The notes below the pieces were generated by a model, which was given only the letters and a program-made list of their open reading frames with translations, made no database searches and was not told the DNA's origin. A stretch of DNA of 64,000 bases, taken from Saccostrea cucullata. Taxonomy: Eukaryota. Of the stretch, positions 3,322-60,100 are shown one piece after another (positions within the stretch are counted from its first letter, which is position 1; every line of letters begins with the position of its first letter). A program made the translations under genes and the position numbers. The stretch spans positions 124,001 through 188,000 of the forward strand of contig NW_026930969.1 in NCBI RefSeq assembly GCF_032062105.1, given 5' to 3'.

Positions 3322-6300
3322 ATGGCGGCTTCATCTACATTACATAAACTTCCTCTTCATTTAGCCGCAGAGAAAAATGACATTGAGAAGCTCGAGCAGA
3401 TTTTACTCGATGGAGATTTTAATACAGTTAATCTCCAAGACCAGACGGGTAGGACAGCGCTTCACTGTCTTTTGGATTCTCCTGGCTTTACTGATTTGGA
3501 CGAAGTAAAGAGAGGAATTCAGATCCTGTTAGACAACGGAGCGAAACAAACATGGAGAGACGCCCCTTCATACAGTGGTTCAGAACTACTTGGAATTTAT
3601 TCCAGAAATTATTCGGTTTGTATTGACTCACGGCCAAAACTACTTGATGGGCACGCAGGATGAGAACGGATATTCAGTATTTCATTTGTTCATGTCAGAA
3701 TTCAGTGACCTTGTTGTAAAAAGCAAAGGGTATATGGAACTTCTGCAAGAAAAGAATGAATTCCTTCAAAGTTTACTCCAAGGTGAAATTGCAAATTATA
3801 ATTTTTCTGCACTTCTTGATCAAAAAGAGCGCAATGGATATTCTGCATTTCATACGTACATCGGAAATTCCGACTGCTCCCCAGAGTTAGTACAAATAAT
3901 GATCAGTTGTGGAGCTGATGTAAACACATCTTCTAATTTAGGAATCACTCCCCTTATGGGGTCTGTGTTCAGACGGCGGAGGGATGTTGTAGAAATGCTG
4001 TTGAAGGCAGGTGCAAACCCGAATCAAACAGATATATTTGGTCAAAGTTGTACCTTTCGTGTTTTTACAAACGATTGTTTTGAATTGCTGAACCAGTTTG
4101 ACGCCGATTTTCGCATTAAGGATAAGTTTGGAAGGACCCCGATCACAAATTGTGCACTCTACACGCCGGAAGATCTCCCCAACACAGGCATCGTCATCTC
4201 CAACGAGTTCTCTCATTATCCACCTTTATTTGAAAAGATTTTAGAAGCCGGGGTTAATATTAATGAGTTAGACAGACATGGTTCCTCTGCACTTCACTAT
4301 GGTGCATGGTATGGAGATCCTACAATGGTTGGATCACTTTTGCAACATGGAGCAGATTTAAATATTCTAAACCACCATGACAACTCACCTTTGGATTTAG
4401 CAATGCACGTTGGAAATGATAACCTTTACAAATTTTTTGGTAAAACAGATAATGGGGAAATTCGACCCGAGTGTGAAACAAGATATTGCCGACTTATTAT
4501 TAATGAAGCAGAAACAGATCATATGAAGACTGTGCTGGAGGATTATTTAGGAATTAAAGATGACCCAGTTTATCTTTTGACGTCACTTGTGAAATCTCCA
4601 AGGGTAGGGATGACGGAAAAAAGACCCGAATCAAGGCTTATCAAGTCGGAGGTAACAAACCTAATGCAAAGGATAGCGGATGTTGTTGGAAAATTGAATC
4701 CGCTTTTTTCTTGTAAAATTTATCCAACAGGCAGTTCGTCTGAAGGTACGAAAGTAGCAGATCCAGACGAATTTGATTTTGTGTTCTGCTTGGAAAACTT
4801 CTCAAAAAACTGTGTACCACATCAGGATGATGTTATTTTGAACAGTGGTTTTGCAAGTTTAAAGATAGATTCTAGTGAAAGCCTGGGGAAATTTGATTTA
4901 TTTCTTGATGGAAAGATCCTTTCAGCAGAACGTGTTCGGAGTACTTTTCAAGATTTGGTTACTTCTGCCCTAAATACCGCGGGCACATGGACCTCCGAAT
5001 TTTTATATTTCGACGGTCTCCTTGGGTTTCCCATGGATAAACCTGTGATCAAGCTGGAAATCCATTGGTTTGGCCCCTTAATAAAGCATATGATAATCAG
5101 TGTAGATATTGTTCCAGCATTTTTGCCAAAGAATTGGCGACCCGTGGAATTAAGCGAAAAACAACCCTTATTTTCTGTTGACGAACAGTATTTGCTTATT
5201 CTACATTCACCAGAAGGCTGTCAATGGGGCGATGAAGATGATGAACAATTAGTGAGAATTTCTAGCTGTCTGATGGATAAACATTATCTAAAAAGTCTTC
5301 CTCAAATCTGTACCGAAAGTTACGCGGCAGCCAAGATTCTGAAGAGCTCCAATTTTCCTCCTAGTGTTCAGTTTGACGACGACTCATCAGCGGAAGACTC
5401 CTCATCATTTGTCGATTCGGAAGAGTCCTCTCAGAAATCGGACGAAGAACAAAAAAACAGCCGAAAGAACAGAACTGGAAGAAGTAACAATTACAAAAGG
5501 GAATACAGTGGATACAACTTTCAAAATGTACAAGCATCAGTTGAATCACCACCTTTCGAAGATCCAGTAGAGGTATCAACATCCAGTGGACTATCCGACG
5601 ATATCATTGAAAGATATGAAACACAGAGATCAAAAAGGAATCTAACTATGAATTGGCTCATGGAAATTGATGATACGTGCAAAGTTAGGAAGATATTTAC
5701 CCCCAAAGACAAAAACTTGACACCGATTAACGGGGCTTCCTGCAAAACTTTACCGTCTGAAGTGAATACAGACAAATCTATTAATTGTAATTATCAGGGA
5801 TTAGCGGAGAGTGCAGATTCTGAGGATAATGGTAGGGTGTTAGAGTCAATAAAGAAAAATACAGAAGAAGAACCAACAAACTCTTACAACGCAGTATCCA
5901 CTCTAAGCTTAGATGATGGGAATGAAGCCAAACACGTTCCAAATAGTGAGGTAAATTCTGATGAAATGGAATCTATGTCATCTGACAATGTTGAATTGGA
6001 GGGTGGCGACATCGTTTCTGCATCTGATGAAATATCGAGCTACATGTTAAAAATGTGTTTATTCCATGTTTTACAAGAAGAGAAGAATAGAGATTGTGAG
6101 ATTCCTCTGTACACTCTTCTGGAACTGACCATTAAAATTTACGAAAAGCTGTTAGCGTTTGCTGTAGAAGGTCGTCTACCTTCTTATTTTCTTCCTTTTA
6201 TAGACGTGTTTACATACACCAATACACACATTAGAATAATTCCAGAGGAGGAATTAGACCTGGAGAGAAAACAACAGTGTAAACGGATTCAAACCTTTTG

Positions 6301-6346
6301 TAAAGTTATTTTGGGTATCTTAAAGCAAAATCCTAATGGCTATTAA
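3322..6346 (+). CDS. Ankyrin-repeat cGAS/Mab-21-like nucleotidyltransferase (cGLR), copy 1; frameshift at ~3544
   Basis: ORFs 3322-3663 and 3575-6346. Ankyrin motifs (LPLHLAA, GRTALH, GITPLM, GSSALHYGA, SPLDLA) precede PTGSSSEGTKVADPDEFDF, SVDIVPA, RISSCLMDK, SSYMLKMCLFHV and LPSYFLP. 14-nt deletion relative to copy 2 after GACAACGGAGCG. Confidence 0.9.
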
Positions 6347-7739
6347 GCTTAGTGAACGTTAACCCCATAAAAGATATTAATATTTATGGTTATTGATATT
6401 TACTGCCATAAAAGTAACCTATATCAATTATATACAGTACAACAAAAAAAAATATAGTTATTGATATATCGGTGTCTCTGTTGTTAAATAGGTGATTGTT
6501 CCTTGCAAAAATAACTAATGTTTTGATTGTAACTTTGCTGATAAAAAAAAACGAAATTTATAGAGGTAAACCATTGCATGAATGACTGTCTAAATTGTAA
6601 AGTTCAACTGCGTTCAGCGATTTTGTTTTGTAATAACTAATAAATGATTTATGTTATGTCCATTTTCTTATTTTTATGGTTTTGGTAACATTTTTGGGCG
6701 GTTTTTGGTGTAGGTTTCATTTGTAACTATAATGTTGTTGACCAAAATAGATGATTGTATCTTGTTCATGAAAACGATCAAAGAAAGATGCTACTGTTTA
6801 TGAATTTGCCCTGGGGATTGCTCTGTCTTGGGTTATGAACAAAAAGGTGCAGGTTTCATTTGTTAAGGTGACCAAACTTGCATGGATGATACATCTAGGA
6901 TAAACAGACTCCAAATAACAAAGAGGTATAAAGATGGAACACGTTGAAAGATAGAATTATAATATCAAATAAAAACTGCATTTATATTTTCTTCTTTTTT
7001 TATGACATTTTTCTATTACTTACTGCAAGGACCACAATCTTTTATATCTGACCTTCATTTTCAGCTAGTTTTTGGCAGGCAGTGTACCAAACTTAGTTCT
7101 GATGATATGAAATACAAATTATTTTCTAACATTTAGCACAAGAGATGCAAATCTGCTTCAGATGCTGGATTTTGATTACATTTTCATGAAGAAGAACTAG
7201 TTTAAATTTTTTAAGGTCTATTTCAAAGTATTTAAATGCTTAAATATTTTCATTTTTGGAAGTTTCACTTTTGGTTGGTTAATTGTGTGACTTTGCCTTA
7301 CTAAAGACAACATTTTGAGGTTTGTCTTTAATGAATTTAAAACATCATTTCATATGATCATGGTCATGAAATTTAAAACACACTTATAAATGCAGCAAAT
7401 CCACGTGCTAGGCCACACTTCTTGATTCGTCCCCCCTGCTGCTGGATTTTTTTTAAAATGATAAGTGGTACATCGACTATTTGTAATTTTATCTCGAAAA
7501 AGACATTGGAACTGTAAATATTACTTACTGAAGGAACGCAATGTGTTATAGAACTCAGATACGTTTCTAGCTATGGCGGACAGTGCACGAAGTTCTTTTG
7601 AAATGCAATTTATTTTCTAAAATTTACTAATCAAGCACCCACAAGATTAACATATATTTCAATATATCAATTGCTGATAAAACAGTCAACAGTACCAGGC
7701 TGATTTTGAGTTCCTTTTAATGACACAAAACTTGTTACG

Positions 7740-8110
7740 AAAATATAAAAAGATTTCAATGCTATCAACTTCACTCAATAAAAATATAACGACAGAAAAT
7801 TCACTGGCTTCAATAAAAATATAACGACAGATTTCAATGCTATCAACTTCACCGGCTTAAAACACGTCCAATAAAAATATAACGACAGATTTCAATGCTA
7901 TCAACTTCAATGGCTTAAAATACGTCCAATAAAAATATAACGACAGATTTCAATGCTATCAACTTCACGTCCAATAAAAATATAACGACAGATTTCAATG
8001 CTATCAACTTCACTGGCTTAAAACACGTCCAATAAAAATATAACGACAGATTTCAATGCTATCAACTTCACTGGCTTAAAACACGTCCAATAAAAATATA
8101 ACGACAGATT
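7740..8110. repeat. Minisatellite, 58-bp unit, ~6-7 full or partial copies
   Basis: Unit AATAAAAATATAACGACAGATTTCAATGCTATCAACTTCACTGGCTTAAAACACGTCC, repeated head-to-tail with internally deleted variants. Confidence 0.95.
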
Positions 8111-8681: not shown

Positions 8682-11600
8682 ATGGCGACTTCGTCCGTAA
8701 CCGAAAAACTTCCTCTTCATTCTGCCGCCAAAGAAAATGATCTCGTTAAACTCGAACAGCTTTTACTTGATGGGGATTCACATACAATTAATCTTCGGGA
8801 TCAACACGGAAGAACATCTCTTCACTGTCTTTTGGATTCTCCTGCCTTTACTGATTTGGACGAAGTAAAGAGAGGAATTCAGATCCTTTTAGACAACGGA
8901 GCGGACATCAACATACAAAACAAACATGGAGAGACGCCCCTTCATACAGTGGTTCAGAACTATTTGAAATTTATTCCAGAAATCATTCGGTACGTATTGA
9001 CTCACAGCCAAAGTTATGAAATGGAGGCACAGGATGAGGACGGATACTCGCTTTTTCATTTGTTCATGTCTGATTTCAATGACCATGCCAAAGAAAAGGA
9101 AAGATTCCATCAAATATTGAAAGAGAAAGAAGAATTTATTCAAGCCTTGCTTCGGGGAGAAATATTGAAATTTAATTCTTCTGCGCTTTTAAATCAAAAA
9201 GAACGCAATGGATATTCTGCATTTTACACATATATTGGAAATTCTACCTGTGCCACGGATACGGTACAATTAATGATTGATTGTGGTGCTGACGTAAACA
9301 CTTCCTCTGAAATAGGAACCACGCCCCTTATGGAGTCAGTGCTGAGACGACGGACAGATGTTGTAGAAATTCTTCTGAAGGCAGGAGCAAACCCAAACCA
9401 AACAGATATATTCGGTCAAAGTTGTATTTTTCGTGTCTATACTAATGATTGTTTTGAATTGTTGAATCAATATGGCACCAATTTCAAAATAAAAGATAAA
9501 TTTGGACGGAGCCCAATTACAAATGTCGAACTTTACATTTCAGAGGATCTACCTCATTCAAACATTGTCTTCTCCCAAAACTTTTCTAAATATCCTCCTT
9601 TATTTGAGAGGTTTCTTGAAGTTGGACTTAGTTCTAACGAAGTTGACAAGCATGGTTCCTCTCTTCTTCACTATGCTGCATGGCATAGAGATTCAAGAAT
9701 GATCCAAGCTTTGATAGAGCATGGTGCGGATTTGAATATTTTGGATAATGATGGCAACAAACCTTTGGATTTAGCAAAACATGTGGGAAATGATAATGTT
9801 TATAACATACTTGGTGAAACAAATGAGGGGGGAGATCAAAAAAGCAATGAAGCAAAATATTGTAGATATATCATTAATGAAACTGAAACAAACAATATGA
9901 AGACTGTGCTAAATGAGTATTTAGGAATCAAGGATGATCCTGAATACTTAGTGACTTCACTTGTGAAATCTCCGAGATTAGGAATGACGGAAATAAGACC
10001 AGAAGTAAGACAAATTAAAGCAGAAGTAACATGCCTAATGCAAAAAATAGCGAGTGTTGTTGGAAGATTGAATTCACTTTTTTCCTGTAAAGTTTTACCA
10101 ACAGGAAGTTCGTCTGAGGGTACAAAAGTAGCAGATCCAGACGAATTTGATTTTCTGTTCTGCTTGGAAGAATTTTCGAAACATTGCATTCCACATCAAG
10201 ATGATGATATTTTGAATAGTGGGTTTGTAAGTTTAAAGATTCAGCAAGGAGAAGGCACGGAAAAATTTGAAACATTTCTTGATGAATCAACTCTTTCAGC
10301 AGAACTTGTTCGTGGAACCTTCCAAGATTTGGTTACTTCTGCTCTTAACACCCCAGAAATATGGAAATCCGAACACTTGTATTTCGATGGTCTTCTTGGG
10401 TATCCGATGGATAAACCAGTATTAAAGTTAGAACTCCATTGGTTTGGTCCCATTATGAAGCATGAAGCAGTCAACGTAGATATTGTCCCTGCTGTTCAGA
10501 TAAAACATTGGAAGCCAATTGAATTAACTGACAAAAATGTTGTGTGTTCTGTTGAAGAACAGTATTTATTATTGTTCCATTCACCAGAACGTTGCCAATG
10601 GGGCGATAAAGACGATGAACAATTAGTGAGAATTTCTAGCTCTCTGATGGAAAAATGCTATCTAAAAAGTCTTCCCCAGATCTGTACTGAAAGTTATGCG
10701 ACAGCTAAAATTTTAAAAAGCATTAATTTTTCACCCCAGGTTCAATTCAATGAGGAGATAAATATGGAACATATAGCAACACGGGAAATGAGATTGTTGC
10801 AACAGACACATTCAACTTCGGCAAGTGAATGTGTCCATAGAAAAGAGAAGAAAAATAATGAAGTTCCGACAAGTCACGTTGTACAGGACATTTCGAATTC
10901 TGAAGAGCAATCGGCGGGAATTGTTAATAAAACACAACCTTTTAAAAGTAACCCTATCATACCATGGATGATGGATATCGATGAAACTTATAAAGTACGA
11001 AAGTTATTTACTCCAAAGGAAAACGGTAAACCTAGGAACAAAGTATATTTGGATAAACAAATGGGCATGACATGTACAACGTCAGTTTTTGAAAATGACA
11101 AGCATAAATTAATTTATTTCAAACCCATTGAATGTGAGCATGATTTAAATAATCCAAATAATAGTTTTATGGAATCAGAATTGGGTGGACAGTCAACGTG
11201 CGGTCTCAACTCAGAACAAGACCGTGATTTAAAACCCGATTCAGATTTGCCTGATAAGAACTTTGACGAAAATGATGATAGCAATGGCAGCACTGAAGGC
11301 AAATCAAATGTTAGCATCAAAAGTACAAATGCAAAAACTGACAAAGATAGAAAGCGAAAGTTCTGAGGAGATGGAAGATGATTCTTCAGATGATACTGAG
11401 TTGGAAGGCGGTGATGTCGTATATGCGTCAGATGAAATTTCCAGCTACATGTTGAAAATGTGTTTATTTCATGTTGTACATGAAGAGAAAAACAAAAACG
11501 GTGATGTTCCGCCTTTTACTCTTTTGGAACTGACCATAAAGATTTACGAAAAGTTGCTGGCATTCGCTAAGGAGGGTCGTTTACCTTCCTATTTTCTTCC

Positions 11601-11757
11601 TTTTCTGGACGTTTTTACATACGTTAACACTCATATAAAAGTTCTACCAGACGAGGATTTAGAATCTCTAACCAAGCAACAGTGTTTACGAATCCAAGCC
11701 TTTTGCAGGGTTATTCTGGGAATACTGAAGCAAAATCTAAAAAGCGAAGTTTCATAA
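8682..11757 (+). CDS. Ankyrin-repeat cGLR, copy 2; frameshift at ~11348
   Basis: ORF 8682-11366 (ankyrins, PTGSSSEGTKVADPDEFDF, NVDIVPA) continues in another frame as ORF 11263-11757 (EGGDVVYASDEISSYMLKMCLFHV...LPSYFLP). Collinear with copies 1 and 3. Confidence 0.9.
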
Positions 11758-12361
11758 AGATAAAGATGCTGTGCAATTCTTTTTAAACAGACCATGATTT
11801 CCAGCTATAAATAATTATACATGTACATGTATTTTCTGTTGGGTACACAACCCTTTATGTGTGGATTATTTTTTCCAATGAGTTTTGAGAATTTTCATTT
11901 AATTTATTACATTATGCAAATGAAAATTATTAAAATTCCCTTTGTAGTGTACATTGTGTCAGGTCATAATGGTTCATTAACACTACCATATTGAAAACAG
12001 TCTTATGTTGTGTATCTGATTTTAATATTACAGTTTTGCATTCTATAAACTAAAATGGTGGTATTTTATTTCATCATAGTGTAAGATTTTATTTTTAGCC
12101 AGTATCTTAATATGCTTGCATGTTTAATGTGATATTATTTTTGATTAAATAACGTTTTTATAGAAAAAACATTCATTTATATTTTTCATCAAATGCCCTA
12201 GTCAAATAATTGACTTAATCTCATCCTTTCCATCTGCGTGCAGAACTGAAGTCAAGTGGTGAACAGAACATATTTTTTTAAAAAAGAATTTTTAATAATG
12301 CATTGCATTTTCCCATTCAATATTTTAATAAAAGATTATTTTATTAAAATATAGATAAATA

Positions 12362-12428
12362 TAAAAATCCACATGTTGATCAATGGGAACAAGAAGGACA
12401 GTTTCTTGTCAAGAAAGTCTTTAAAAAT
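12362..12428 (+). pseudogene. Orphan, degenerate copy of part of acyl-CoA dehydrogenase exon 2
   Basis: AAATCCACATGTTGATCAATGGGAACAAGAAGGACAGTTTCTTGTCAAGAAAGTCTTTAAAA closely matches 20845-20907 (NPHVDQWEQEGQF..KKVFK). Confidence 0.85.
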
Positions 12429-13357
12429 TTGCATCATTAAAAATTCTTCAAATGAAAAAAGTAGAATAATTTTTGAAAAAAGACAGAGAAGGGGGTTAGC
12501 AAACAAACATATAACCCAAGGACACGATGATTTACAATTGTTTATAATTAATTCCAAAATTTCGTAAAACGTATTGCATATAGAAACACGGAATGGGGCT
12601 GATAACATAAATTTCACCTCGCAAGATGATGTCTGACTTAAGTGACCATGAAACAAAATATTAACATCAAAACTTTAAGGTAGGTATCACCAAGCAATTA
12701 GACTTTGAAATTCTTTTCAGACGCTTTTGATATCTTCTGTGTTGTTGAGAATACTTGAAACGTATGATCCAAACATGATTACCACATGCTAAGCTCAAAA
12801 AAGCTTCATGGCGTCAAGGGTCTTTCTTCTGGTTTAAAATATCGAAGAGCAACACCCCTCTTGATCAGTTGCCATATTGACTGCTTTCAATGTTTTTTTT
12901 ATTTATACTTACAATACTTCTTCGGTTTTTGTAATTTGAGGTTAGCCCACTGGTTGGACGCTTCCGCGTCGTATTCGATCTAATTCAATCTAATTCCCAT
13001 GTTGAAACGAGTACTCTTCATCATAAATATTCATAAATGAAGTATTATATAACCTTTAATATGAATATATCTCATTTTTTTTTTATAAATATCCTATATG
13101 ATATATGAATATATCTTATTCTTTGTACAGCTAATCAAGATAATTGTTTTATTATTAACAAATATCTTCTATGGCAATTCAAAGCTTATTAAATCAGAAT
13201 TATAACTGAAAGACCTCACTGCATTTCCATACGCGTCAAGTACTTTGATAACCCATGTGCATGATAAAGGTAAAGTGCACTTCAGCTGTTTATAGTCGAA
13301 GTTATCATCAAAGACTGTTTCACTGTATGCCATTTTCAGTTCACAGCTTGGGAAACC

Positions 13358-16300
13358 ATGTCCGCTTTGTCTACCGTACATGAACTTCCTCTTCACTCCG
13401 CTGCAGAAGAAAATGACCTTGTTAAGCTCGAGCATCTCTTAATTAATGGAAATTCCTATGCGGTTAATCTCCGGGACAAACATATGGCAGGACGCCTCTC
13501 CACTGTCTTTTGAATGCCAACACCTTTTCTGATTTGGACGAAGCAAAGAGAGGAATTCAAATTCTTTTGGATGGCGGAGCGGATGTTAACATACAGAACA
13601 AACATGAAGAGACACCGCTTCATACAGTGGTTCAGAATTACTTGGAATTTATTCCGGAAATCATTCGATACTTATTAACTCACAGCAAAACTTACGTGAT
13701 GGAAACACAGGATGAAGAAGGATTCTCATTATTTCACCTGTTCATGTCTGATTTCAATGACCATGTCAAAGAAAGCAAGGAATATCAAAAGCTTTTTCAG
13801 GAAAAGAATGATTTCATTAAAAGTTTGCTTCGTGGAAAAATTGTGAAATGTAACTTTTCTGCACTATTGAATCAAAAAGAACGCAAAGGATTATCAGCAT
13901 TCCTTACATTTCTGGCGAATTCTGAATGCCCCACCGACACGGTACAATTAATGATCGACTGTGGAGCTGACGTAAACACTTCTACTGAAATAGGAACCAC
14001 TCCCCTTATGGAGTCGGTTTTCAGACGGCGGAGGGATATCGTGGAAATTTTGTTGAAAGCAGGAGCAAACCCAAACCAAACAGATATATTCGGCCAAAGT
14101 TGTATTTTCCGTGTCTATACCAACGATTGTTTTGAATTGCTGAATCAATATGGTACAAATTTCTACATCAAAGATAAATTCGGAAGGTCCCCAATAACAA
14201 ATGTTGCACTTTACACGCCGGAAGATTTACCTCAGTCAAACATTGTCCTTTCACAGAACTTTTCGAAATATTCACCATTGTTTGAAAAGTTTCTAGAAGT
14301 TGGAGTAAGTTGCAATGAAGTTGATAAGCATGGTTCATCCCTTCTTCATTATGGGGCATGGTATGGGGATTCCACAATGATCAAAACGCTAATACAACAT
14401 GGTGCAGATTTAAATATGTTTGATTTTAATGGCTACTCGCCTTTGGATTTAGCAAAGTATGTTGGAAATGATACCATTTACAGTTTACTTGGTGGACTAG
14501 ACGATGGAACTGACAATGAAACTAAGTATTGTAAATTCCTCATTAATGCAACTGAAAAAGATAATATGAAGACTGTGTTGAATGAATATTTAGGAATTAA
14601 GGATGATCCTGCTTATCTTTTGATGTCACTTGTGAAATCACCAAGATTGGGAATGACTGAAATAAGACCAGAACCAAGACATATCAAGTCAGAAGTCACA
14701 GGACTGATGCACAGGATAGCAGATGTCGTCGGAAGATTGGATCCGCTTTTTGTCTGTACAGTCTATCCAACAGGTAGTTCGTCTGAGGGTACAAAGGTTG
14801 CAGACCCAGACGAATTTGATTTTGTGTTTTATTTGAATATCTTTTCAAACCATTGTATACCGATTCAGGATGTTAACTGTGTGAACAGCGGATTTGCTAG
14901 TTTGAAAATTAAGTCAAATGAAGTTAAAGGGAAGTTCGAATCCTTTCTTGATGATACGACTTTCTCGGCAGATCTTATTAGGGGTACCTTTCAAGAACTA
15001 GTCACCTGTGCTCTTAACAACCCAGACATATGGACCTCTGATTATTTATGCTTTGAAGGTCTAGTTGACTATCCTTCGGATAAGCCAATTCTGAAGTTAG
15101 ATATCGATTGGTACGGTCCCGTTATGAAACATATAATAGTCAGTGTTGATATTGTTCCTGCTGTTCAGATAAAGGATTGGAAGCCCGTGGAAATAAGTGA
15201 TGATCAGCCAATGTGTTCTGTTGACGAAGAATATTTGCTTATCCTTCACTCACCAGAACGCTGCCCTTGGAGCAGTAAAAAAAGTGACCAGCTAGTAAGG
15301 ATTTCAAGCTCTCTTATGGAGAAACAGCTTCTAAGGAACCTTCCTTATATTTGCACCGAAAGTTATGCAGCAGCCAAAATTTTAAAAAGTTTCAATTTTT
15401 GTCCAAAAATTCAGTTTAATGAGGAAATTATCATTGGATCGGATGGTTCCGTCGAAGTTGTGTTTGAGGAGTCACGATCAAGTGAGAAGTTAGAAAATGA
15501 GCAGTGGGATAAAGAGGAAGACAACGTGACAGAACGAAAAGAAGGCAATGAAGATATGAGATGCAATCAGACAACCAGTCAGTTTTTGCCCTCTCGAGAC
15601 TCCGAGGGCAATTCAAAATCTGAAGATGTCACGAATAAAGCACAATCTTCTCAACACAGACCTGTTTTGCCCTGGGTGATGGATATTGATGATACTTATA
15701 ACGTTAGAAAAATATTTACGCCAAAAGAGAGCGAGAAAATGAAGAACAAGACATATACAGATGAAAAAATGGGGATGACATATACAACATCAATTTGTGA
15801 TAAAGACGGACACAAATTAATCTATTTTGAGCCCCTTCCATGTGAAGAGAATCCCAATGATTTGGGTGAAGGTAGTTCAAAATTGGATTGCAAAGAGGTG
15901 AATAGACAGCGAAAGGACAGTCCAAATTCAGAAATAGACTCTGAACAGAGATCTGAATCAGATTGTGCTGATGGGAACAACAGAGCTGAGTTCATCCACA
16001 GAAATGATAACGCTGAAGGCAATACAAAAGATAGCAAGAAAAGTAAAAATCACAATACCGAAGAGGACGTAGGTGGTGTGGAAGGTTCTGATGACTCGGA
16101 AGATGATTCTTCGGTTGATACTGAGTGGGAAGGTGGTGACGTCGTTTCTGCTTTCGATGAAATTTCCAGCTACATGTTGAAAATGTGTCTATTTCATGTT
16201 GTACATCAAGAGAAAAACAAAAATGGCGATGTTCCCCCTTTCACTCTTTTGGAACTGACCATAAAGATTTACGAGAAGTTACTGACGTTCGCCAAGGAGG

Positions 16301-16497
16301 GTCGTTTACCTTCTTATTTTCTTCCTTTCTTGGATGTTTTCACGTATGTTGATACTCATATAAAAGTTATTCCAGAAAAAGATTTAGAATCTGTGTCAAA
16401 GCAGAAATGTGAACGAATTCAAGCTTTCTGTAAGGTTATTTTGGGAATTTTGAAGCAAAATCAGTCAGGCGATGTTACCTCATCTGAGAAATTATAA
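13358..16497 (+). CDS. Ankyrin-repeat cGLR, copy 3; 2-nt insertion frameshift at ~13484
   Basis: True start is ATG 13358 (MSALSTVHELPLHSAAEENDLVKLE, homologous to the starts of copies 1 and 2). An extra AT in AAACATATGGCAGG shifts the frame. ORF 13510-16497 carries the remaining ankyrins and an intact NTase/Mab-21 fold. Confidence 0.9.
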
Positions 16498-29070: not shown

Positions 29071-30206
29071 TTACACATTTGATTCACATCTTTCTCGAGC
29101 CGTTTCATGCATGGCTTCGTATGAAGTTTCACGCACTTCTGCACAAGGTTCGTGTGACGTGTCATGAACACCAGCATTGTGTTCTGGCGGTTCATGAACT
29201 CCCACGCACGGTTCCTGTGACAAAAGTGTACTTCTCGTGTGTCTAGAACTGATTTCCGCCGTTTTGTATCTGTAACATTTAAAACAGTTTACAAACAAGA
29301 GTACTCGTCGACAATTTGGAGTAAATATAAAGTAAATAAAAGGATTGATAGTAAAATTCAGATGAAGTAGGATAAACGCTATTCGATATATCACGATATA
29401 TGGTATCGATATTTCGATTTCCCGGGCTAATTTGATCGTATCGTGTATATTTATCGGTAACGTTGTCACGAGATACGACAAGACCACGGTTGAAACGATT
29501 TTGGACATTTTCTTGCGTGTAGCTTCTCTGTCATTTGTAATGGATTCCTTAAGAGCTCGCAGCTTTAGGAAATGGCAAACTAAAATGATGATAATCGGCA
29601 CAAAGGTCACGATTATCGTGATAACAAAATTCACCATTTTTCCCAGCGATGGATTTTTGCTTAATTTAACAGAATAGATGTAGAAGGACGCAGGAATGGT
29701 ACATAAAATCCATATGGAAAGAGATACACGAAAAACTGTTCTGTTTGTTTGTCTTGCCAAACTTGACAGAGGGTGGGCAATCATGAAGTACTGCTGTATG
29801 GACAGGAATGTCACGTGGGATGCTGACGAAAGAGCACTCGTTATGACCAAAATACTTAGTATAATAGCAACTACGTCACTTTCAGTTCCAGAAGGAATGA
29901 AAAACCAAGATGCACTAGAAATGTATTGAAAACCAAGTACAGCAAATCGGCCAATGCCAAAGCCGCAAATCCGAAGAAAATCGGTCTGTGGAGACGTCTG
30001 ATGCGGAAAATAATTCCGAGCACTCCAGAATTGGCCAGTATTCCAACTAAGGACACACAAGTAGCAATAACTATAATGGGGGAACAAAAAAGAGCTTTGG
30101 AGCATACATTTTCTTCCTCCTTGTAAACTGAGGAATTATTTGACATGGTTAGGGTTTCTTGTATTCTACTGAAATAATTCATCCTATTATCTGTTAATGT
30201 TGTCAT
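29071..30206 (-). CDS. Intronless class A (rhodopsin-like) orphan GPCR; 1-nt frameshift at ~29930
   Basis: ORF 29871-30239 gives TM1-2 (GILANSGVL, LALADLLYL). ORF 29071-30105 gives TM3-7 (LSIQQYFMIAHPL, SIWIL, TTLP, NFTINPFIY). One extra T in the T4 run at 29929-29932 would join them. Start could be ATG 30206, 30182 or 30146. Confidence 0.85.
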
Positions 30207-43290: not shown

Positions 43291-46200
43291 TTAATTTTTG
43301 GCACTTTTAGAGCGGTCTATAATATACTCCACTTTATTTTTTTCCTCCTGTGTGAGGTCCTCTTCATATTTTGGAATCGAGAGTTCATAGCAGCATCTCT
43401 TACAACGATCATGAACTATAGCAATCCGTTGTTCCTTATTCGCACGTCTTTGCTTGGTGAGGGAGGCGCTCTTATGACTTCGGCCTGCAAGGGACATATC
43501 AATTTTAGGGAAAGATGTTTTAGCTCGCTTCACATGCTTTTTCTTTTTCTTCTTCACTCTTGGTTCGTCAAATGACACTAGAGGTCGCTGATACAGCGCA
43601 GACGTCGCATTTTCAGACGAGTATGTTTTTGCCGAAGCTTGAGTCATGTGGGTTTTCCGGGAAACTCCGTCAGTTTGCGCTTCTCTATCCGTGTCAGTTT
43701 CTTCGTTGTCGGAAAGTCCCGCTCCTTCCCCCGGATCGTCGATGATCTCTTCCTCGCTGCTGGCATCTGCCTCGTTGTCAGCCATTGCCCCCTCATCTAC
43801 CTGTCCATTTTCCTCATCTTCTTTTAAAATCTCGTCAATTGTATCCTTTAGGTTTTCATTTTCCTTATCTCGACTTTCATCATTGTCCTTTTCGTTTTCT
43901 TTCCCCGTCTTTTCCTGTTCAGGAGGTGATTCTGATGAAATATCTCCTTCTTCATCAAACGTAATATCCGCTGGTTTATTGGCGTTTTCGACCATTTTGA
44001 GAGACGTGTCTATGTATATAGATGACATTTTGCTTTGATTGTCCATTGTTCTGTTTATTTCCTCTATAAGTTTGTCCATGGTATCATCTTCCTCGCACTG
44101 TGATATACTCCTCAGTTCTTTATCACCTTTGGAACTTTGCATACTTTCAGACTGTCTTCCATTATCGACATGTGAAATCTTATTAGACACCTTCTTCTTT
44201 TTCTTCTCAACTTCAACCCCCTTTGGAGAGATCATCTTTGAGAATCGATGTTTCCGTATTTTCGGTAATCCTTGTAATGCACTGGCTTTTAATATCAATT
44301 CTTCTTTATGTGTCATTCTCCTTGGACTGGGCTTTTTGATCGGCTCCAACATATTCTGAAGACAACGACTTCGAAGGTGATGAAATGACAGGTCTTCTGC
44401 ACTTTCAACGTATTTCACGACTTTTGGATAGTCTTCCGTTTTCAGATCTTCAACAAACTTTGTTATAGTGTGTTCAAATGGACATCTTTTGCAATTAACT
44501 CTTAAAATTGCAATCCTGTGGTTTCTCTGTGCCATTCTCATTTCATGAGCGGACTGTCGAAGCTTTTCATCATCACGTGTGCTTTTAGCGGGCTTGGGTT
44601 TTTGCACCCTGTCCGTAAACACGACTGGGTAATCATTGAACGACACCCCAGTTTTGACAGGTGGCGGTATGCTTTCTGTGTCCTCATCCTCCTTCTCCAC
44701 GACATCTCCAGTCACGTCTGCTGGAATCTGGGAAATCTCTTCTAAATGCTCTGTTTCAATGGTTTCCTCAATATGTTTCGTATCGTCTGCTTCTTCCTTT
44801 TTGAAAGAACTCCCGCCGTCTGTTGTTGTTTCCGTCTGTTTACTTTCATCATCCATCAATTCATCCAGCATTTCATTGAAATAATCGAAATTCGGCGGTG
44901 GTTTCTTGTGGGATTTTTTACTTTGTCTTGTTGTCGGCCGGAGGTATTCTTCATATTTATCCTCGCTAATATGAACAAGGTCTTTCATATGCGTGCCAAC
45001 TGGTGGTTTGACACTGAAATCGAACATATGTTGACGAATATCAAAGCCACTGCCAAGATGTTTTCTTTTCTTGCTCGTGCGAACGAGAACTGCGTTAAAA
45101 CAATTAAGGAGGCTGCCCATGATGACTGGAATTATACTTATGATCGCCATGTAAAATCCATATTCAAGAGAAATCTGTTTTCCGCTGTTATTGTAGGCGA
45201 ATGAGTATGCTGCGATGATGATTAGAAGACCTGTGTAAAATATATATTAAAAAAAAAAATCCATAATCGGAGTAAAATCTACACTATGTATGTGCCATAT
45301 AAATAATGTCAAACAAATAGTACTTTGTATAATACTGTTTGTGTAAAACTGATCAGATGATTTCTTGCTTTTATAGCCAAACAGGGCATATTATTATGAA
45401 CGAGACAAATGTACAGTATGAGAACATACACGAAATAAACTCTTCTTTGTATTAAAAAAGAAAAAATAAACACACCAGAATCACATTTCAAAATATTATT
45501 CATATCGGGGCCAAATTTGACTCATATCAGATAAAGTCCTTTAAAATTGAACTCACCTGCGACAATACCAGTCCCTGCGGAGCCGTAGAGTAGTCTTCTC
45601 TTGGTTCTGTACTCCCAGTAAAATTGTAGAAACCCTGTCCCCGTGGATACAAAGTAAAAGAAGAGTCCCAGACTGGCCATAGCCTGGACAAAATCCTTCC
45701 AAGATCCTACAATACAAAAAATATTTGGAATGGTGCATTTAACATAAACCTGTATACATATACATGTATCGCCGTTTTAAAAATGTAAAATCACTTATCC
45801 TCACGGGTTGGGAGGGGGTATCTGTTGATTGGTATTTTATTTCGTAGATGAAGAACTGTTAAGTTGTTGTTATGTACATTTTACATTTCGTGAAAGACTA
45901 ATTGTTGGGCCTCTTTATACCCCGAAAGCAATGAAAATGAAACTCTTGCAAAATAAGTTATTTCATAGAGCCTTGTTTTACTTATATTTATGTCTATAAT
46001 ACAAGGTCATTTACATTTTGTGTTTCAAAAGTTAAACTACTGAATATACGGATAGATACAGCAGTCAGTCAAGACAATAGCAGTTAAATGACTTTGTGAT
46101 TGCCAATAAAAATGGAGCAAGGCTAAGGCCAAATTATTCTATAAACAAATTAAGAATATTTTTGCCTTACCCCCTCCCCTTCATTTTTTTAAAGTTATAT

Positions 46201-49566: not shown

Positions 49567-51537
49567 TCACTTTTCAACTTCTGGTAAGTCTTCGAACTTA
49601 TGCGAGAGCATACTATGTCCATGAACATCGACTTTATGTGGTTCGTGTTCATCGAAGCTGAATGCGGAATTGGATCGACCTTTCTTGATTTTCTTAGTGG
49701 ATGCTCTCTTGGATTTCCTATAAGCCCGAGTCTTCTTCAAAAGATCCGAAATTTTGATAGGATCGAAGACATGTACCTTTTTCAAACCTTTGCCCTTCGC
49801 CTTGGGATTTGCAGCTTGTTCTACGCAAAAGGGCACTGAAATGATATCGTCATTCACGTCTGACGGCGTATATGGTCGCGGAGTTTCGGCCGATTCCGAC
49901 ATGTTGGTACTCGGATCATGAATATTATGGTTGCTTAATGCAGCCTCTCTTTCGTCCAAGTTTGGATTGACGTCATACTGTTCCTGACTAATAGACAGTT
50001 CCGCAACTTCTCGATCTTGCGACTTCGTTTCATACTTATCATACGCTTCTTTCTTAACAGTCAACTGCTTGAAAAAGAAAGGATCTTCGTCTGGCGACCT
50101 GTCGAAGTCGTCGTTAGTAACAACTATGCCTGGGGCAGGTTTTTGTTTGAAGTCATCGAACATGGTTCCACTGGGTGGAAACATAAAGGCAGGTCGTTCT
50201 ATTTTTCGTTTTCTTTTCATTTTTTGTCGTCTTTCTTGGTGCATTTTCTCCATATCCTCTTTCTCGTCTATGAATACCATAGTTCGAGCAACTAAAATCC
50301 CCATCGCTGCAGCATAAAACAGAGGCGCGATGCTGATGGCTGCTAGATAGAATGCAATGTCGTCACTTCCGGCTGAATACGATGGTTGGGATTTATAAAT
50401 GGCCACAACAAGAATGATGAAGATTCCTAGATTAAAATTAAAAAAATATTAAATGAAACAAAAATTCAATATAAATGAAGTAAAATAACCGTATTTTGTT
50501 GAGAAGTGTAAATAGCTTAATGTATACGTTTAAAAAATGAATTTGTCGCACTAAGCCACTTTTCTGTTAAAGCCAAATTAACATCAGAAATGACTTTAGA
50601 CATAACAATTTTTTAAGTTTTTAACCTTCAGGGTATTGACATGATGAACATTAAAAGAGAGCAAAATTTCAATCTTTCATTTATTTTTCGTGTGATTTAA
50701 TACACCTTTGAATATCAGTCAACTGTTAACCATTGAATCATAGCAATTTATATTAATCGTGCTACACTCGTTTCTCTGTAACCTTGTCAAGCAATCGTGT
50801 TCAAATGTTTAAAAAATATGTATTTCAAAAAAGGAAACTAATACTTTTAATTATTCTCACCTGCCGCTAATGAAGTTCCCACTGAAGCATAGAACAGCCT
50901 CTGTCTCTTCTCGTTGATCCAGCAGAGCGCCAGGAATCCGGTGGCCATAGCGGCCGTGTAGAAAACCAGTCCAAGACTGGCTAGCGCCTTCAATGGTATT
51001 ATGATGCCCCCTGCAAGACCGCAATATAATTTTTCTATCATACCATCAGTATAGCCACTAGCCAATAAAAGGAGGGGGCGTTCGCAATACGATTACATTT
51101 ATCCTTCTTTTTACAAATTAATATTTCAAAATAACCATTGTTTTCGAAAAAGTCTTGATAGAAAATATGTAAACAGTCATTTTCCTTCTCATTTTGGAAA
51201 CAACAAGTAAGAAATAGAGCTAATGTTTGTACAGGCTTTTAAGGTAAAAAGTAATTAAAATACATGTATATATGTTTGAAATTCTATTTAGTTCAAATCT
51301 AAGTTACCGATTTAACCTACCTTCAACATTATCGAAATGCGTGTATTGACAACGACTTCCTCCATCGCTGTCAATAATGCAGGCCATAAAAATTCCATAA
51401 TTGTAATGTTGGCCAGTCTCCCGTTTTGTAAATTTATACCATCTTGGAATAAAGAACGAAACGACGAACAAAACATACCCCACAAATAGAGCGAAAAACA
51501 CCGTTTTCTGTAGAAATAAATTCGCTCCTTTCTTCAT
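49567..51537 (-). CDS. Claudin/PMP22/EMP-like four-TM protein B (tandem paralog) with ~240-aa tail
   Basis: Exons 51537-51321, 51010-50861 and 50426-49567. PRW...YGIFMAC...C, KALASLGLVFY...TGFL...RLFYAS, FYLAAISI. Exon 2 is 150 nt in both paralogs. Confidence 0.85.
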
Positions 51538-56336: not shown

Positions 56337-58699
56337 CAATGACTAAATCCTAAAAAGATTCCGTTTTTCGATACAAGAAGTTCAAATTTTATGTACAGTG
56401 TATTAAAAAATGTCATTCGAGGAGGGGAACTTTCAATTATTTTGCTCAACATTGTCATCTGTATACAAAGCATTTTGTCTTCCCATCTCTTCTTTTATCA
56501 TTTTTGTTCTAAATCGTTCTTTTTTTTTTTACATTGATCAGTTAAAAATTAACTATCATATTTTTTTTTAAGCCGGATGTTCAATTTTATTCTCTTTTTA
56601 GAGTTTTTCAAAACGATTAGTTAGTGATTTAGTACACTTATCCATATATAGGATACAGGATGTAAAAAGAATAAGCATTTTCCCGATTTTTCGTTATCCT
56701 TAGTATAATCAACGTACAGGACGAAATCTCATTAACAAATCGGTACTAATTGCGAACAAAACATGCCATAATATTATATAATAAAACATTTTTTTCTGTT
56801 TTTTTTTTAAATCGAAAATAAATTTGTTCAACCTAAATTCAAATAGGAGTTGGGGAAAACCTTTAATGTCCTTGTCTCTTTTATGTGATGTAAATATTTT
56901 GTTTAGATGTTGCTTGAATCACTCAGAAACCACTCTTTCCATTAATTATATCAACCTCGTAATATTGTCTAACAAAGAAAAGGAAAAACGTTCCAATTCA
57001 CATAACATGAATAAAGGTAACACCCACATTCTGTGACGTACATAGGGAAATTAAAATATCAATTAAAAGGTTTAATTCAGGTGACCATGCAAGAAGCAAG
57101 TCGCACCTAGGCTCTAGAGTTTTGAATTGTTTCACAACAAATAAATCTGTAAAGTAAAAAAATTGGGGCATAATTAAATCGAATGTAGTTCACTAGAACT
57201 AAATGTATATAAAAACCTTTTTTACTATTAAGGGGAAGTTTTTCCCCCTCAGAGAATAATTTTGCAACAATACAATGCAGAAAATTTTCCTGTTATCTAT
57301 TTTTTTTTTGTATTATTTGGCACAAACATTAAGTCGCTTTTCAACTTTTGCACATCGCCTTGCAAAGACCTTAATTTAGTCTGTCTGCATATGTAAATAT
57401 TATAAACGGTAGAAATACACAAGTCGGTACTTCGTTTTATAGTTTATTAACGGTCCAAACTTGGCGTTTTCTACTCATCTGTATGTCGGCGTGGACAATG
57501 CAAAGTCCAGATTCCAACTGAAGATCATGTATTAAACAACCAATTTATAACAAGTACACAATTACAATGAAGAGTTACTCTAAGCAGAAGGTCATAATTG
57601 ATATAATTAAATTAATTGAATATTAATTAACATGTTCACTCAGGCACAGGTGGCATCAATTGCCTTGCGGTCAAGGTCTGATTATGTTAAGTTAAGCACT
57701 ATCAAAAGGAAATTATTGCTACTCAATTAGATATGTTCATTTTACACGGTCACAATATGTGTATTCACCAACCAAAGGTCCTTGGATGGGGGGTTTACGG
57801 TTCTAGAAGTACGACCAAACTTTGGTAGGTAGTACATACAATATAATAATATAAAATATGAATTAATATGTGTACATGTGAGAGGTGTTATTTTAAACTA
57901 TGCATTTCATTCTCTTAAATTAGCCAAAATTAGTTTTAAAAAAAAATGGGCCTGCAAATATGTACTTTATGTACTGTTGAAAATCGCATATTAAATCTAT
58001 CACATTGTCAAAACATTTTCCAATGCACTTGACCTGGACATTTTTGTTGAAAAAATATACATTCAACTGCGATATAGGTTTGTTCCCACCTACTTAGAGG
58101 AACACAGTGGCAATTACTCACAAAAATCTAAACGGAGCGTGAATCATTCGCGGCCCATCACAACACACTGTGATCTACAAAGGGACGCCAGGAGTTAATG
58201 AGCGGCGTGGCTGTTCTATTAGTCCGAGGACATTTAGTATACCTGACCAAAACAATGGCGTCCATTTTGCTGGACATTTATGACGGTGCATTGTTCTAGT
58301 TACTGATTATTTTTTTTTTAATGTATCACAAACTTGGGATTCCCATGGATGTCTTATTCGTGGAGGAAGCGATATTTTGAGATACTTTTAAGGACTATTA
58401 ATACTTTTTCATTTTTTAATTTGGGAAGAAAAACCAAGTGACATTATTTTCAACAATATAGTCAACAGTAGGATTTTCCACCATTTCAGTGATCATTTAT
58501 ACTAAACTATGGATTATAATAACTCACACTAATTGGAGAATTTTATACGGCTGTTAAAACGAAAACTCATGGATGTTGTGTAACAGCAGAATAACAATAT
58601 CAAAGTGGGAGGTAAAAAAAATTGTACAAAAGATTGAGGGTCACCCAGAGGAAGTTCATTGCATAAGAAGAGGAAATACTTGTGCGACTGTCTGTCAAT

Positions 58700-60100
58700 A
58701 TGAATTTTACCACTTTCCCCTCTAATATAAGCGTGAGCGAGACAATGTCTACGACAGCAGCAATATTTACCACTGGGCAACCATCGCTCAGTAGTGGGCA
58801 ACCATGGCCCAGCACTGGGCAACCATTGCCCAGTGAGGAATCTCTTGCCGCAGTCATACTAGCCCACATGAACGAGGAGGAAAAATTTCGCCAGATTCCC
58901 CTGACGTTATTTCTAGTTATTCTTTCGGTAACCGGATTGTTCGGAAATGTCTTAGTTTGTTTCATATACGGGAGAGTGTATAAAATTTCCAACTCCCGAA
59001 CGTTCATTATGAGTCTTGCGGTGGTGGACTTATTCACATGTGCCATAGGAATTCCAATGGAAATAGCGACTTCATTGGATCAGTATCAGTTTCATTCGCC
59101 GTGGGTCTGTAAAATTTCTCGGTTTATGAATATTTTCACAACCATAACGGCTGCCGTCGTGCTTGTACTTATTGCAATGGATCGTTATCGGAAAATCTGT
59201 CGGTCTTTGGAATGGCAGATCACAAATAGATATTCCAAGATACTTTGTGTCTGCTCTGTGATCGCAGGACTTATATTATCTTGGCCAGCATTTCCCTTAT
59301 ATGGAATAAAGTCTACTGACCTCGTTTTAACTCCGGATGTGAATGGAACATCTACCGAGTGTTCGATTGACGATTCGTCCAAAAACACCCGAATTCCGCT
59401 AATATACGAAGCACTGCATACCATGGTGTTTCTGGTCGGCGTCGTTTCCCTTGTGATATTGTACATATTGATAGGAAGACGTGTTCGATTTTTCGCGCAA
59501 AAGCACGAGGCTCGGAGAGGTAGCTCCTCTAATAGTCTGGACACCGTAGAACAGCGAAATGAGAGACGACAAACAAGACGGGATAAACTAAGACAGTTAC
59601 AGAGCGAGGGTTCTTCATCTGACGGTGATTCCAATGTTTCCACTGAGACAAAGTCGTCTGTGGTGAGAAACGGTAAACATAAAATAAGCTTTACTCTGTC
59701 CTCTGGTGTGGGGCAAAATACTGTGGACATGAAGCCTGGTGCTTCAGTTCTGAAAAGAAATAACTCGAGCTGTCTGAACGCACCTATTATGGCCAAACAG
59801 GCCAAATGTAGGAAGACGCTAGCTCGGAACACGACTTACCTTATGTTTTTAATAACTATTGTGTTTATTTTGAGTTTTGTGCCAGTACTCACTTTAGTGT
59901 TAATACGAGAAGTTAAGAAGGATTTCGTGGATAATTTGTCAGACTCGGGGAGAACTGCCTATAGGTTCTTTTTAAGGTCGTATTATATAAACGCCGCCAT
60001 GAATCCCGTCATTTACTCCATCTTTGACAGACGATTCAGAAAAGCGGTGAAAAGTACAACGAGAGAAATGATTAATAAGTTTCCGTTTTGTAAATCTTAA
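58700..60100 (+). CDS. Intronless class A GPCR, peptide-receptor-like (CCK/gastrin/orexin-like group)
   Basis: GLFGNVLV, LAVVDL, TM3 Cys, IAMDRY, LSWPA, ECL2 Cys, long Ser/Arg-rich ICL3, LSFVP, NAAMNPVIY, FRKA. First ATG at 58700 (the ORF track starts at a GTG). Confidence 0.95.
   Translation: MNFTTFPSNISVSETMSTTAAIFTTGQPSLSSGQPWPSTGQPLPSEESLAAVILAHMNEEEKFRQIPLTLFLVILSVTGLFGNVLVCFIYGRVYKISNSRTFIMSLAVVDLFTCAIGIPMEIATSLDQYQFHSPWVCKISRFMNIFTTITAAVVLVLIAMDRYRKICRSLEWQITNRYSKILCVCSVIAGLILSWPAFPLYGIKSTDLVLTPDVNGTSTECSIDDSSKNTRIPLIYEALHTMVFLVGVVSLVILYILIGRRVRFFAQKHEARRGSSSNSLDTVEQRNERRQTRRDKLRQLQSEGSSSDGDSNVSTETKSSVVRNGKHKISFTLSSGVGQNTVDMKPGASVLKRNNSSCLNAPIMAKQAKCRKTLARNTTYLMFLITIVFILSFVPVLTLVLIREVKKDFVDNLSDSGRTAYRFFLRSYYINAAMNPVIYSIFDRRFRKAVKSTTREMINKFPFCKS

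Follow-up and report, generated by a model that had tools for sequence, protein, structure and literature searches.

As set out by Li et al. (10.1101/2023.02.22.529553), cGAS-like receptors (cGLRs) carry an h[QT]GS loop followed after 8–20 residues by a [DE]h[DE]h motif, and 50–90 residues separate the second acidic position from the third. The same source reports that oyster cGLRs are activated by dsDNA, that nucleic-acid-sensing cGLRs have a pI above 8.5, and that fusions of ankyrin repeats to the cGLR domain constitute a minor architecture, exemplified by Acropora XP_029202789; acidic cGLRs are suggested there to sense non-nucleic-acid ligands. In human cGAS, residues K427–H429 make up the KKH loop of DNA site C (described in PMC8365253).

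We analyzed a 64-kb stretch of the Saccostrea cucullata genome (hereafter the window), which contains three tandem, intronless genes on the plus strand, each encoding ankyrin repeats, a Mab-21 nucleotidyltransferase (NTase) domain, and a Mab-21 C-lobe (Table 1). Pfam matches to Ank_2 and Mab-21 fall within one open reading frame in each copy, with the N-terminal ankyrins in frame with the NTase domain, and the closest relatives of the encoded proteins are Saccostrea oyster proteins. The acidic catalytic triad (E449, D451, and D561) is invariant across 28 of 28 aligned proteins, and all three copies bear TGSS followed after 11 residues by EFDF, which fits the activation-loop definition above. 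Searches with a structural model (VIA, over residues ~379–1000) identified as the best match Cv-cGLR1 from Crassostrea virginica (PDB 8GJW; Z 28.4, rmsd 3.2, 331 residues), along with Tc-cGLR (Z 26.8) and mouse cGAS (Z 25.5). The second and third acidic positions are 107 residues apart here; since Cv-cGLR1 itself has a spacing of ~97, counted from the alignment, we do not regard the stated 50–90 range as strict. By structure comparison and the triad, the core, with both of its lobes, is a predicted cGAS-like receptor. Among the aligned proteins, three from Mytilus (P0010, P0011, and P0013) have Q for the conserved K of the G-T-K motif and EMDF at the following motif, with the acidic triad kept.

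Table 1. Window coordinates of the three ankyrin-cGLR genes and of the elements within their inserts
Feature	Position	Strand	Remarks
Copy 1 ankyrin + cGLR (Mab-21) gene	3322..6346	+	intronless; frame shift in ankyrin region
Copy 1 catalytic elements	GSSSEGTK 4730–4753; DEFDF 4766–4780; VDIVP 5102–5116	+	sequence
Copy 1 insert	5345..6025	+	227 aa, net charge −22
Copy 1 outgoing stem strand F-P-P-S-V-Q-F	5345..5374	+	P invariant
Copy 1 acidic linker 1	5375..5653	+	predicted disordered, near-neutral sequence
Copy 1 island WLMEIDDTCKVRKIFTPK	5654..5710 (W..FTPK 5654–5707)	+	predicted beta-hairpin
Copy 1 acidic linker 2	5711..5992	+	takes in eroded second hairpin
Copy 1 returning stem strand ELEGGDIVSAS	5993..6025	+	alignment
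Copy 1 C-lobe, DEISSYMLK helix onward, Mab-21_C	6026..6346	+	Pfam, profile alignment
Copy 2 ankyrin-cGLR gene	8682..11757	+	frameshift ~11342–11347, within linker 2
Copy 2 island WMMDIDETYKVRKLFTPK	10965..11018	+	motif search
Copy 2 second hairpin MGMT...KLIYFKP	11061..11126	+	motif search, alignment
Copy 3 ankyrin-cGLR gene	13358..16497	+	2-nt insertion at 13484–13485
Copy 3 insert	15388..16155	+	256 aa, net charge −29
Copy 3 island WVMDIDDTYNVRKIFTPK	15673..15726	+	predicted strands 736–740, 746–752; pLDDT ~61
Copy 3 second hairpin	15769..15834	+	predicted strands 772–779, 782–789; pLDDT 59–65

Each window copy contains exactly one frameshift in the contig sequence, a feature overlooked in the initial annotation of this DNA. 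Two lie in the ankyrin region, as a 14-nt deletion at 3543/3544 in copy 1 and the 2-nt insertion in copy 3; that of copy 2 lies inside the insert, and the insert length that we give for this copy (238 aa) is a read-through length. In contigs of a related organism (two sequencing runs), 5 extra bases at 11342–11347 yield an open frame in copy 2. The S. echinata orthologs P0002 and P0007 end early. The frameshifts are either assembly errors or the mark of a cluster in birth-and-death turnover, and with all three copies shifted and P0002 and P0007 ending early, the cluster may be decaying. Copies 1 and 2 are near-identical at synonymous sites around the copy 1 deletion (window ~3490–3600 and ~8850–8975), where 20 of 21 and 19 of 22 same-residue codons are identical, versus ~65% elsewhere; this is probably a short gene-conversion tract within the region coding for ankyrins.

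The remainder of the window holds a retroelement reverse-transcriptase fragment just upstream of copy 1 (1953–2747, a weak RVT_1 match), intergenic fragments of high-copy repeats recognized by their very high read depth (~6700–7550 and ~12350–12430), short tandem repeats (~7740–8000), and two intronless genes for rhodopsin-family GPCRs (29071–30135, minus strand; 58667–60100, plus strand). Two long acidic low-complexity open reading frames on the minus strand (43291–45246 and 49567–50448) follow a transmembrane-like segment and match no Pfam family; we guess that they are probably last exons of claudin-like membrane proteins.

The C-lobe of each window protein is interrupted, between AKILK and DEISSY, by an insert of 227, 238, and 256 aa in copies 1, 2, and 3, with a net charge of −22, −20, and −29, respectively. 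D, E, S, and N account for 0.39–0.46 of insert residues versus 0.26–0.27 in the remainder of each protein. The initial annotation had described acidic insertions of ~230–260 residues that barely align, and this description holds: identity between copies is 18–35% in the linkers and 65–80% in a short island, which lies where it had been placed in every copy. Alignments reveal a fixed order of elements, beginning with a stem strand (F-x-P-x-h-x-F) that is also found in most short-loop ankyrin-cGLRs, and continuing through acidic linker 1 to the island. After the island comes a second hairpin ending in W/L-I-x-F-x-P, which corresponds to the MGMT...KLIYF.P segment noticed earlier in copies 2 and 3 and is indeed confined to these two among the window copies, then a helix in some members, acidic linker 2, and a return strand (W-E-G-G-x-h-h). 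The closing E(L/W)EGGD(I/V)V.A.DEI motif ends the insert in all three copies, as had been observed, and the GG return stem occurs in 16 of the 16 insert-bearing rows listed and in 0 of 10 short-loop rows. A fuller subclade, comprising an intact 1056-aa paralog from the same genome (L004; G000:C12533:281709–285551), proteins from C. gigas and Pinctada, and those of the P0008 type, has an additional G-x-I-L-x-x-N-G strand before the island. Some members have less: copy 1 retains only the island hairpin and has no second hairpin, the S. echinata model P0002 is without the second half of the island, and in Mytilus P0013 the match to the island profile reaches only 11 bits. The window copies are likely reduced, eroded forms of a fuller domain of ~120 residues.

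An insert of this kind could in principle be an intron or an assembly artefact. We ruled this out, as copies 1 and 3 are open in frame through the insert; in these two copies, moreover, no consensus donor lies close to where the insert starts, and many full-length homologs carry the insert, as do transcripts. For the latter, we used four sequencing runs (three recorded as RNA, one presumed RNA) from a related organism, mostly 90–99% alike. One contig from the presumed-RNA run spans 5240–6346, the entire copy 1 insert, and contigs from a recorded RNA run cover 5537–6021, 10936–11536, and 15564–15900. Oligo-dT reads fall at low depth inside the copy 1 and 2 inserts, with essentially none in copy 3, and two intergenic bins have zero depth in all four runs. 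Among the joints listed for these four runs, none removes an insert. In linker 2 of copy 2, a single contig joint leaves out 127 nt (11228–11356), with the intervening letters not known; the joints within the copy 2 linkers resemble differences in length between alleles. The insert is coding and is transcribed colinearly in the relative, so the splicing that might have explained it away does not occur in this RNA.

We modeled the insert in two proteins with AlphaFold, in each case from a shallow alignment. For copy 3 (19 rows; mean pLDDT 71, pTM 0.71), the stem strands at residues 647–651 and 887–893 are predicted at pLDDT ~88, the island forms a beta-hairpin (pLDDT ~61) followed by the second hairpin (59–65), and the linkers are below 50. 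The L004 insert modeled alone (30 rows; pTM 0.49) contains a contiguous beta-rich domain at residues ~92–211 (~120 residues), of which the island is the best-predicted core (pLDDT 80–82), with the second hairpin at 79–83 and the linkers below 50. By rough arithmetic, a pTM of 0.49 needs ~133–139 well-placed residues of 165 ordered ones, which exceeds the ~120-residue domain alone and suggests that the model places stem and domain together. Against this, mean pLDDT across the five L004 models is 54.8, 45.0, 43.5, 39.7, and 38.9, meaning that one model carries the result. On these predictions, the island is probably the core hairpin of a small beta-sheet domain and not a stand-alone motif.

Searches for a known counterpart of the inserted module returned little. 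Pfam gave no family in the three window inserts and three weak single-member matches for the module; PDB sequences gave one match (E 0.95); Foldseek against PDB and viral structures gave none at E ≤ 0.001, and a wide fold search (VIA) reached a best Z of 2.7, both with a query model of moderate confidence. The ESM Atlas yielded top scores of 0.81 and 0.85 in Mab-21 clusters, which serve as leads only, and among the Foldseek matches listed for the full-length model there are only ankyrin proteins. Searching the oyster's own genome with the L004 module recovered L004 alone as significant, and the sensitivity of this search is low because it missed the window copies. As for a possible likeness between the strand pattern of the module and the small domains of amidohydrolases, the fold searches lend it no support. 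Judging from the models and these searches, the module may be an undescribed small fold.

The insert extends well beyond this genome. Of 19 matches to the C-terminal part of copy 3, 15 bear the insert (two of them window-encoded) and four are without it; carriers include Saccostrea, Magallana/Crassostrea, Pinctada, three Mytilus species, and the crinoid (feather star) Anneissia japonica, so that the conservation in orthologs on which the initial annotation had staked its motif extends across oysters, pearl oyster, mussels, and a crinoid. Loop lengths, measured in 30 of 36 rows, are bimodal, at 213–308 in 20 rows and 10–45 in 10. A tree built from the insert-free core (30 rows, with P0017 excluded) unites the 20 insert-bearing rows in a single clade, apart from the 10 short-loop rows, with support of 100/99, and it places the crinoid outside the groups of bivalves. 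From these sequences, the insertion likely arose once, in an ancestor of a clade whose present members come from bivalves and a crinoid; for the single crinoid sequence, vertical descent, transfer, and contamination all fit. A profile of the island region (82 positions) matched seven proteins among 1.84 billion representatives, five of them clade members and two fragments of such proteins, and 15 proteins in a 5.8-billion set (7,993 candidates scored), all 15 with Mab-21 domains; none of 11 short-loop proteins rose above 0.1 bits. By profile matches, then, the island appears confined to one ankyrin-cGLR clade.

The same genome encodes further ankyrin-cGLRs. The L004 sequence is identical to a Saccostrea protein and represents the fullest form of the inserted beta-domain. 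Seven other loci (L005–L011) have short loops of 10–45 aa where measured; two of them lie close together on C19070, and L008 and L009 are broken in their C-terminal part. An unrelated, ankyrin-less Mab-21 protein (L012:1084–2994) has an apparent long acidic stretch between LKVLK and TYYFK, which suggests that the loop at the insertion site is a recurrent insertion point.

To what extent is the island conserved beyond chance? When inserts are compared in pairs, the island emerges as the best ungapped 20-mer in six of eight pairs, and its score is reached by 0 of 100 shuffles in five of these pairs and by 1 of 100 in the other. The two pairs that include P0012, which has one residue fewer in the island turn, instead give an acidic stretch as their best ungapped window, and 26 and 44 of 100 shuffles do as well. 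Across the island alignment, six positions are hydrophobic in 28–30 of 30 rows, and the D/E of the turn and a P are present in 30 of 30, a pattern suggestive of a buried core. Among the window paralogs, island pN is 0.08–0.18 at a pS of 0.74–0.95, comparable to a pN of 0.15–0.18 for the catalytic core; linker pN is 0.38–0.62 at a pS of 0.45–0.80, with many gaps. Gene conversion as the source of this conservation is ruled out by synonymous sites that are near saturation in the island. Likewise, linker acidity is no by-product of base composition, given that 0 of 2000 shuffles were as acidic in five of six segments and 29 of 2000 in the remaining one. These rates indicate that the island is under purifying selection and constrained like the catalytic core. 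With island pN low, linker pN high, and acidity kept, it appears to be the sequence that is constrained in the hairpin, and in the linkers only the character. Variation among close relatives follows the same division: across 10 cluster mates of P0004, variable sites number 0 of 55 in the island and second hairpin and 7 of 133 in linker 2, and across eight of P0005 the corresponding counts are 4 of 55 and 22 of 123.

We propose that the insert is a beta-sheet domain carried in a surface loop of an ankyrin-cGLR, where it would most likely act as an accessory module that binds a partner or ligand beside the active-site helix. The hairpin models, buried-core pattern, co-occurrence with the GG stem, and purifying selection all favor this explanation, as do the single clade, the clade-confined profile matches, the colinear RNA, and the acidic core; the moderate confidence of the models, erosion of the module, and three frameshifted window copies count against it. 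Taken whole, we lean toward this proposal by a narrow measure. That the insert is a folded domain is, from the models, likely; an accessory binding or regulatory role has somewhat less than an even chance, its regulatory step being suggested by position and charge. Such a partner-docking or regulatory role is possible for a folded module rather than for a linear motif.

Sequence and alignment trace the chain from the C-lobe helix along the conserved stem strand and acidic linker 1 to the predicted island hairpin, which is joined by the second hairpin in most members and by further strands and a helix in the fuller subclade (~120 residues); acidic linker 2 and then the WEGG return strand lead back to the SSYMLK helix. 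In the proposed arrangement, the island hairpin may pack on the two stem strands. The module would sit at the position of the KKH/DNA site C loop, whose residues K427–H429 we place in the insertion-site linker, and would adjoin the counterpart of the nucleotide-binding helix of cGAS. As the least certain step, the module and ankyrins might together bind a protein or other non-nucleic-acid (cationic) ligand and thereby switch the acidic enzyme on.

The main rival to a folded domain with a function is that the insert is a structural relic, an old inserted domain with no signaling role, whose hairpin caps or stabilizes the stem while the linkers drift. The stepwise erosion seen in copy 1, P0013, and P0002, linkers that evolve near-neutrally, the 10 short-loop ankyrin-cGLRs that manage without an insert, and the frameshifts in all three window copies are what such a relic would produce. 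However, by the pN values above, constraint on the island equals that on the catalytic core, and it includes the probably exposed K/R and the P-K end; moreover, linker acidity is kept beyond what the shuffles allow, and the module has been retained from bivalves to a crinoid. We judge a relic unlikely, if a serious contender.

Less probable still is that the island is a linear docking or autoinhibitory motif, disordered until it folds on a partner, the ankyrins, or the NTase lobe. The initial annotation had portrayed a lone 20-residue motif in a disordered stretch, and copy 1, with its island alone between disordered linkers, and copy 3, with an island pLDDT of only ~61, accord with that picture. 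It fares poorly elsewhere: the island is predicted as a beta-hairpin embedded, in the fuller subclade, in a ~120-residue beta-domain of which it forms the core, hydrophobic positions lie on both faces of its first strand, and profile searches found the island in no unrelated protein.

A protease bait, in which pathogen proteases or caspases would cut exposed hypervariable linkers, free the module, and activate the enzyme, had also been suggested. Long, variable, predicted disordered linkers that differ in length among alleles and are where the tandem paralogs diverge most would suit this role, and the bait region of alpha-2-macroglobulin, like acidic autoinhibitory loops, is a variable disordered stretch in a folded immune protein. 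The insert nonetheless has no homology to either and bears no sign of cleavage or of a basic target surface. Alignments display no conserved cleavage motif, linker pN is below pS in six of six comparisons (from poor alignments) with no sign of positive selection, and even once cut, the enzyme would be kept in one piece by its paired stems. With no positive evidence in its favor, we consider a bait very improbable.

Charge bears on the final alternative. Whole-protein pI is 4.8–5.0 for the window copies and 5.2–5.4 for their cores without the insert; in 12 of 12 carriers of the insert, the insert-free core has a pI of 4.8–6.1 and a net charge of −6 to −25, the insert a net charge of −22 to −59, and the ankyrin regions are acidic too. 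The window proteins thus fall outside the pI range above 8.5 given for nucleic-acid sensors. An acidic nucleic-acid mimic, in which the linkers fill a basic DNA/RNA groove and keep the enzyme off until nucleic acid displaces them, would explain an insert charge maintained against base composition in every protein, at a loop that we presume to be equivalent to the one in human cGAS that contacts DNA (PMC8365253), but the acidic core and ankyrin regions probably offer no basic groove, leaving this proposal of the initial annotation the most improbable of all. Because core pI is 4.8–6.1 versus above 8.5 in the sensors, a protein or other cationic ligand is a better guess than DNA mimicry.

Returning to the inserted beta-domain as an accessory module, we tentatively extend it to a broader reading that is itself rather doubtful: an uncatalogued, ancient cGLR clade in which the DNA-binding site-C loop has been replaced by a beta-domain of new fold, held on acidic tethers and forming a built-in sensor of some ligand other than nucleic acid, such as a protein, that gates second-messenger synthesis. 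For most animal cGLRs no ligand is known, and acidic ones have been suggested to respond to something besides nucleic acid; if true, this reading would give a tangible way into the question of what the acidic receptors detect. Ankyrin-cGLR paralogs that are closely related but differ in whether they have the module, at a defined site beside the active-site helix, amount to a natural experiment, and the module itself forms a graded series from the full ~120-residue domain of the L004 type to the single hairpin of copy 1. The ligand question is open to direct experiment, and this in farmed bivalves, about whose sensing of viruses little is understood; L004 is the best candidate for structure and biochemistry.

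The protein family and its fusion to ankyrins are already known, and the insert and its clade are apparently undescribed: the literature that we searched yielded no description of either, and the word "insertion" does not occur in the main text of Li et al. (10.1101/2023.02.22.529553). Table S1 of that paper returned no clade member for three insert-bearing accessions and 11 motif strings, the one WEGGE match being unrelated; this absence is weak in that its cells were covered to 400 characters and a control string beyond that point was missed. The described ankyrin-cGLR fusions share the architecture of the window proteins, and most share a short C-P-x-h-x-F strand after the helix; the short-loop members, in contrast, have only 10–45 residues there, with neither the island nor the WEGG stem. 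Cv-cGLR1 is alike in profile (E 6e-20), in its GS loop, and in the E-h-D...D triad, but has a 17-residue linker at the insertion site, whereas window-type proteins have a 230–300-residue insert, ankyrins, and an acidic core. In mouse cGAS, the site corresponds to the linker between the LMK and SYH helices, which spans 16 residues as counted from the profile alignment; the short cGAS linker against which the insert had originally been set is thus borne out in both proteins. On our reading of the sequences, AAKIL is probably equivalent to LMK, and the profile alignment sets the helix before it in the wrong place owing to the zinc thumb of cGAS, a Cys/His insert of mouse cGAS without a counterpart in that alignment. 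The loop of cGAS at this site is short and basic; the window-type proteins carry an acidic, domain-bearing insert in its place.
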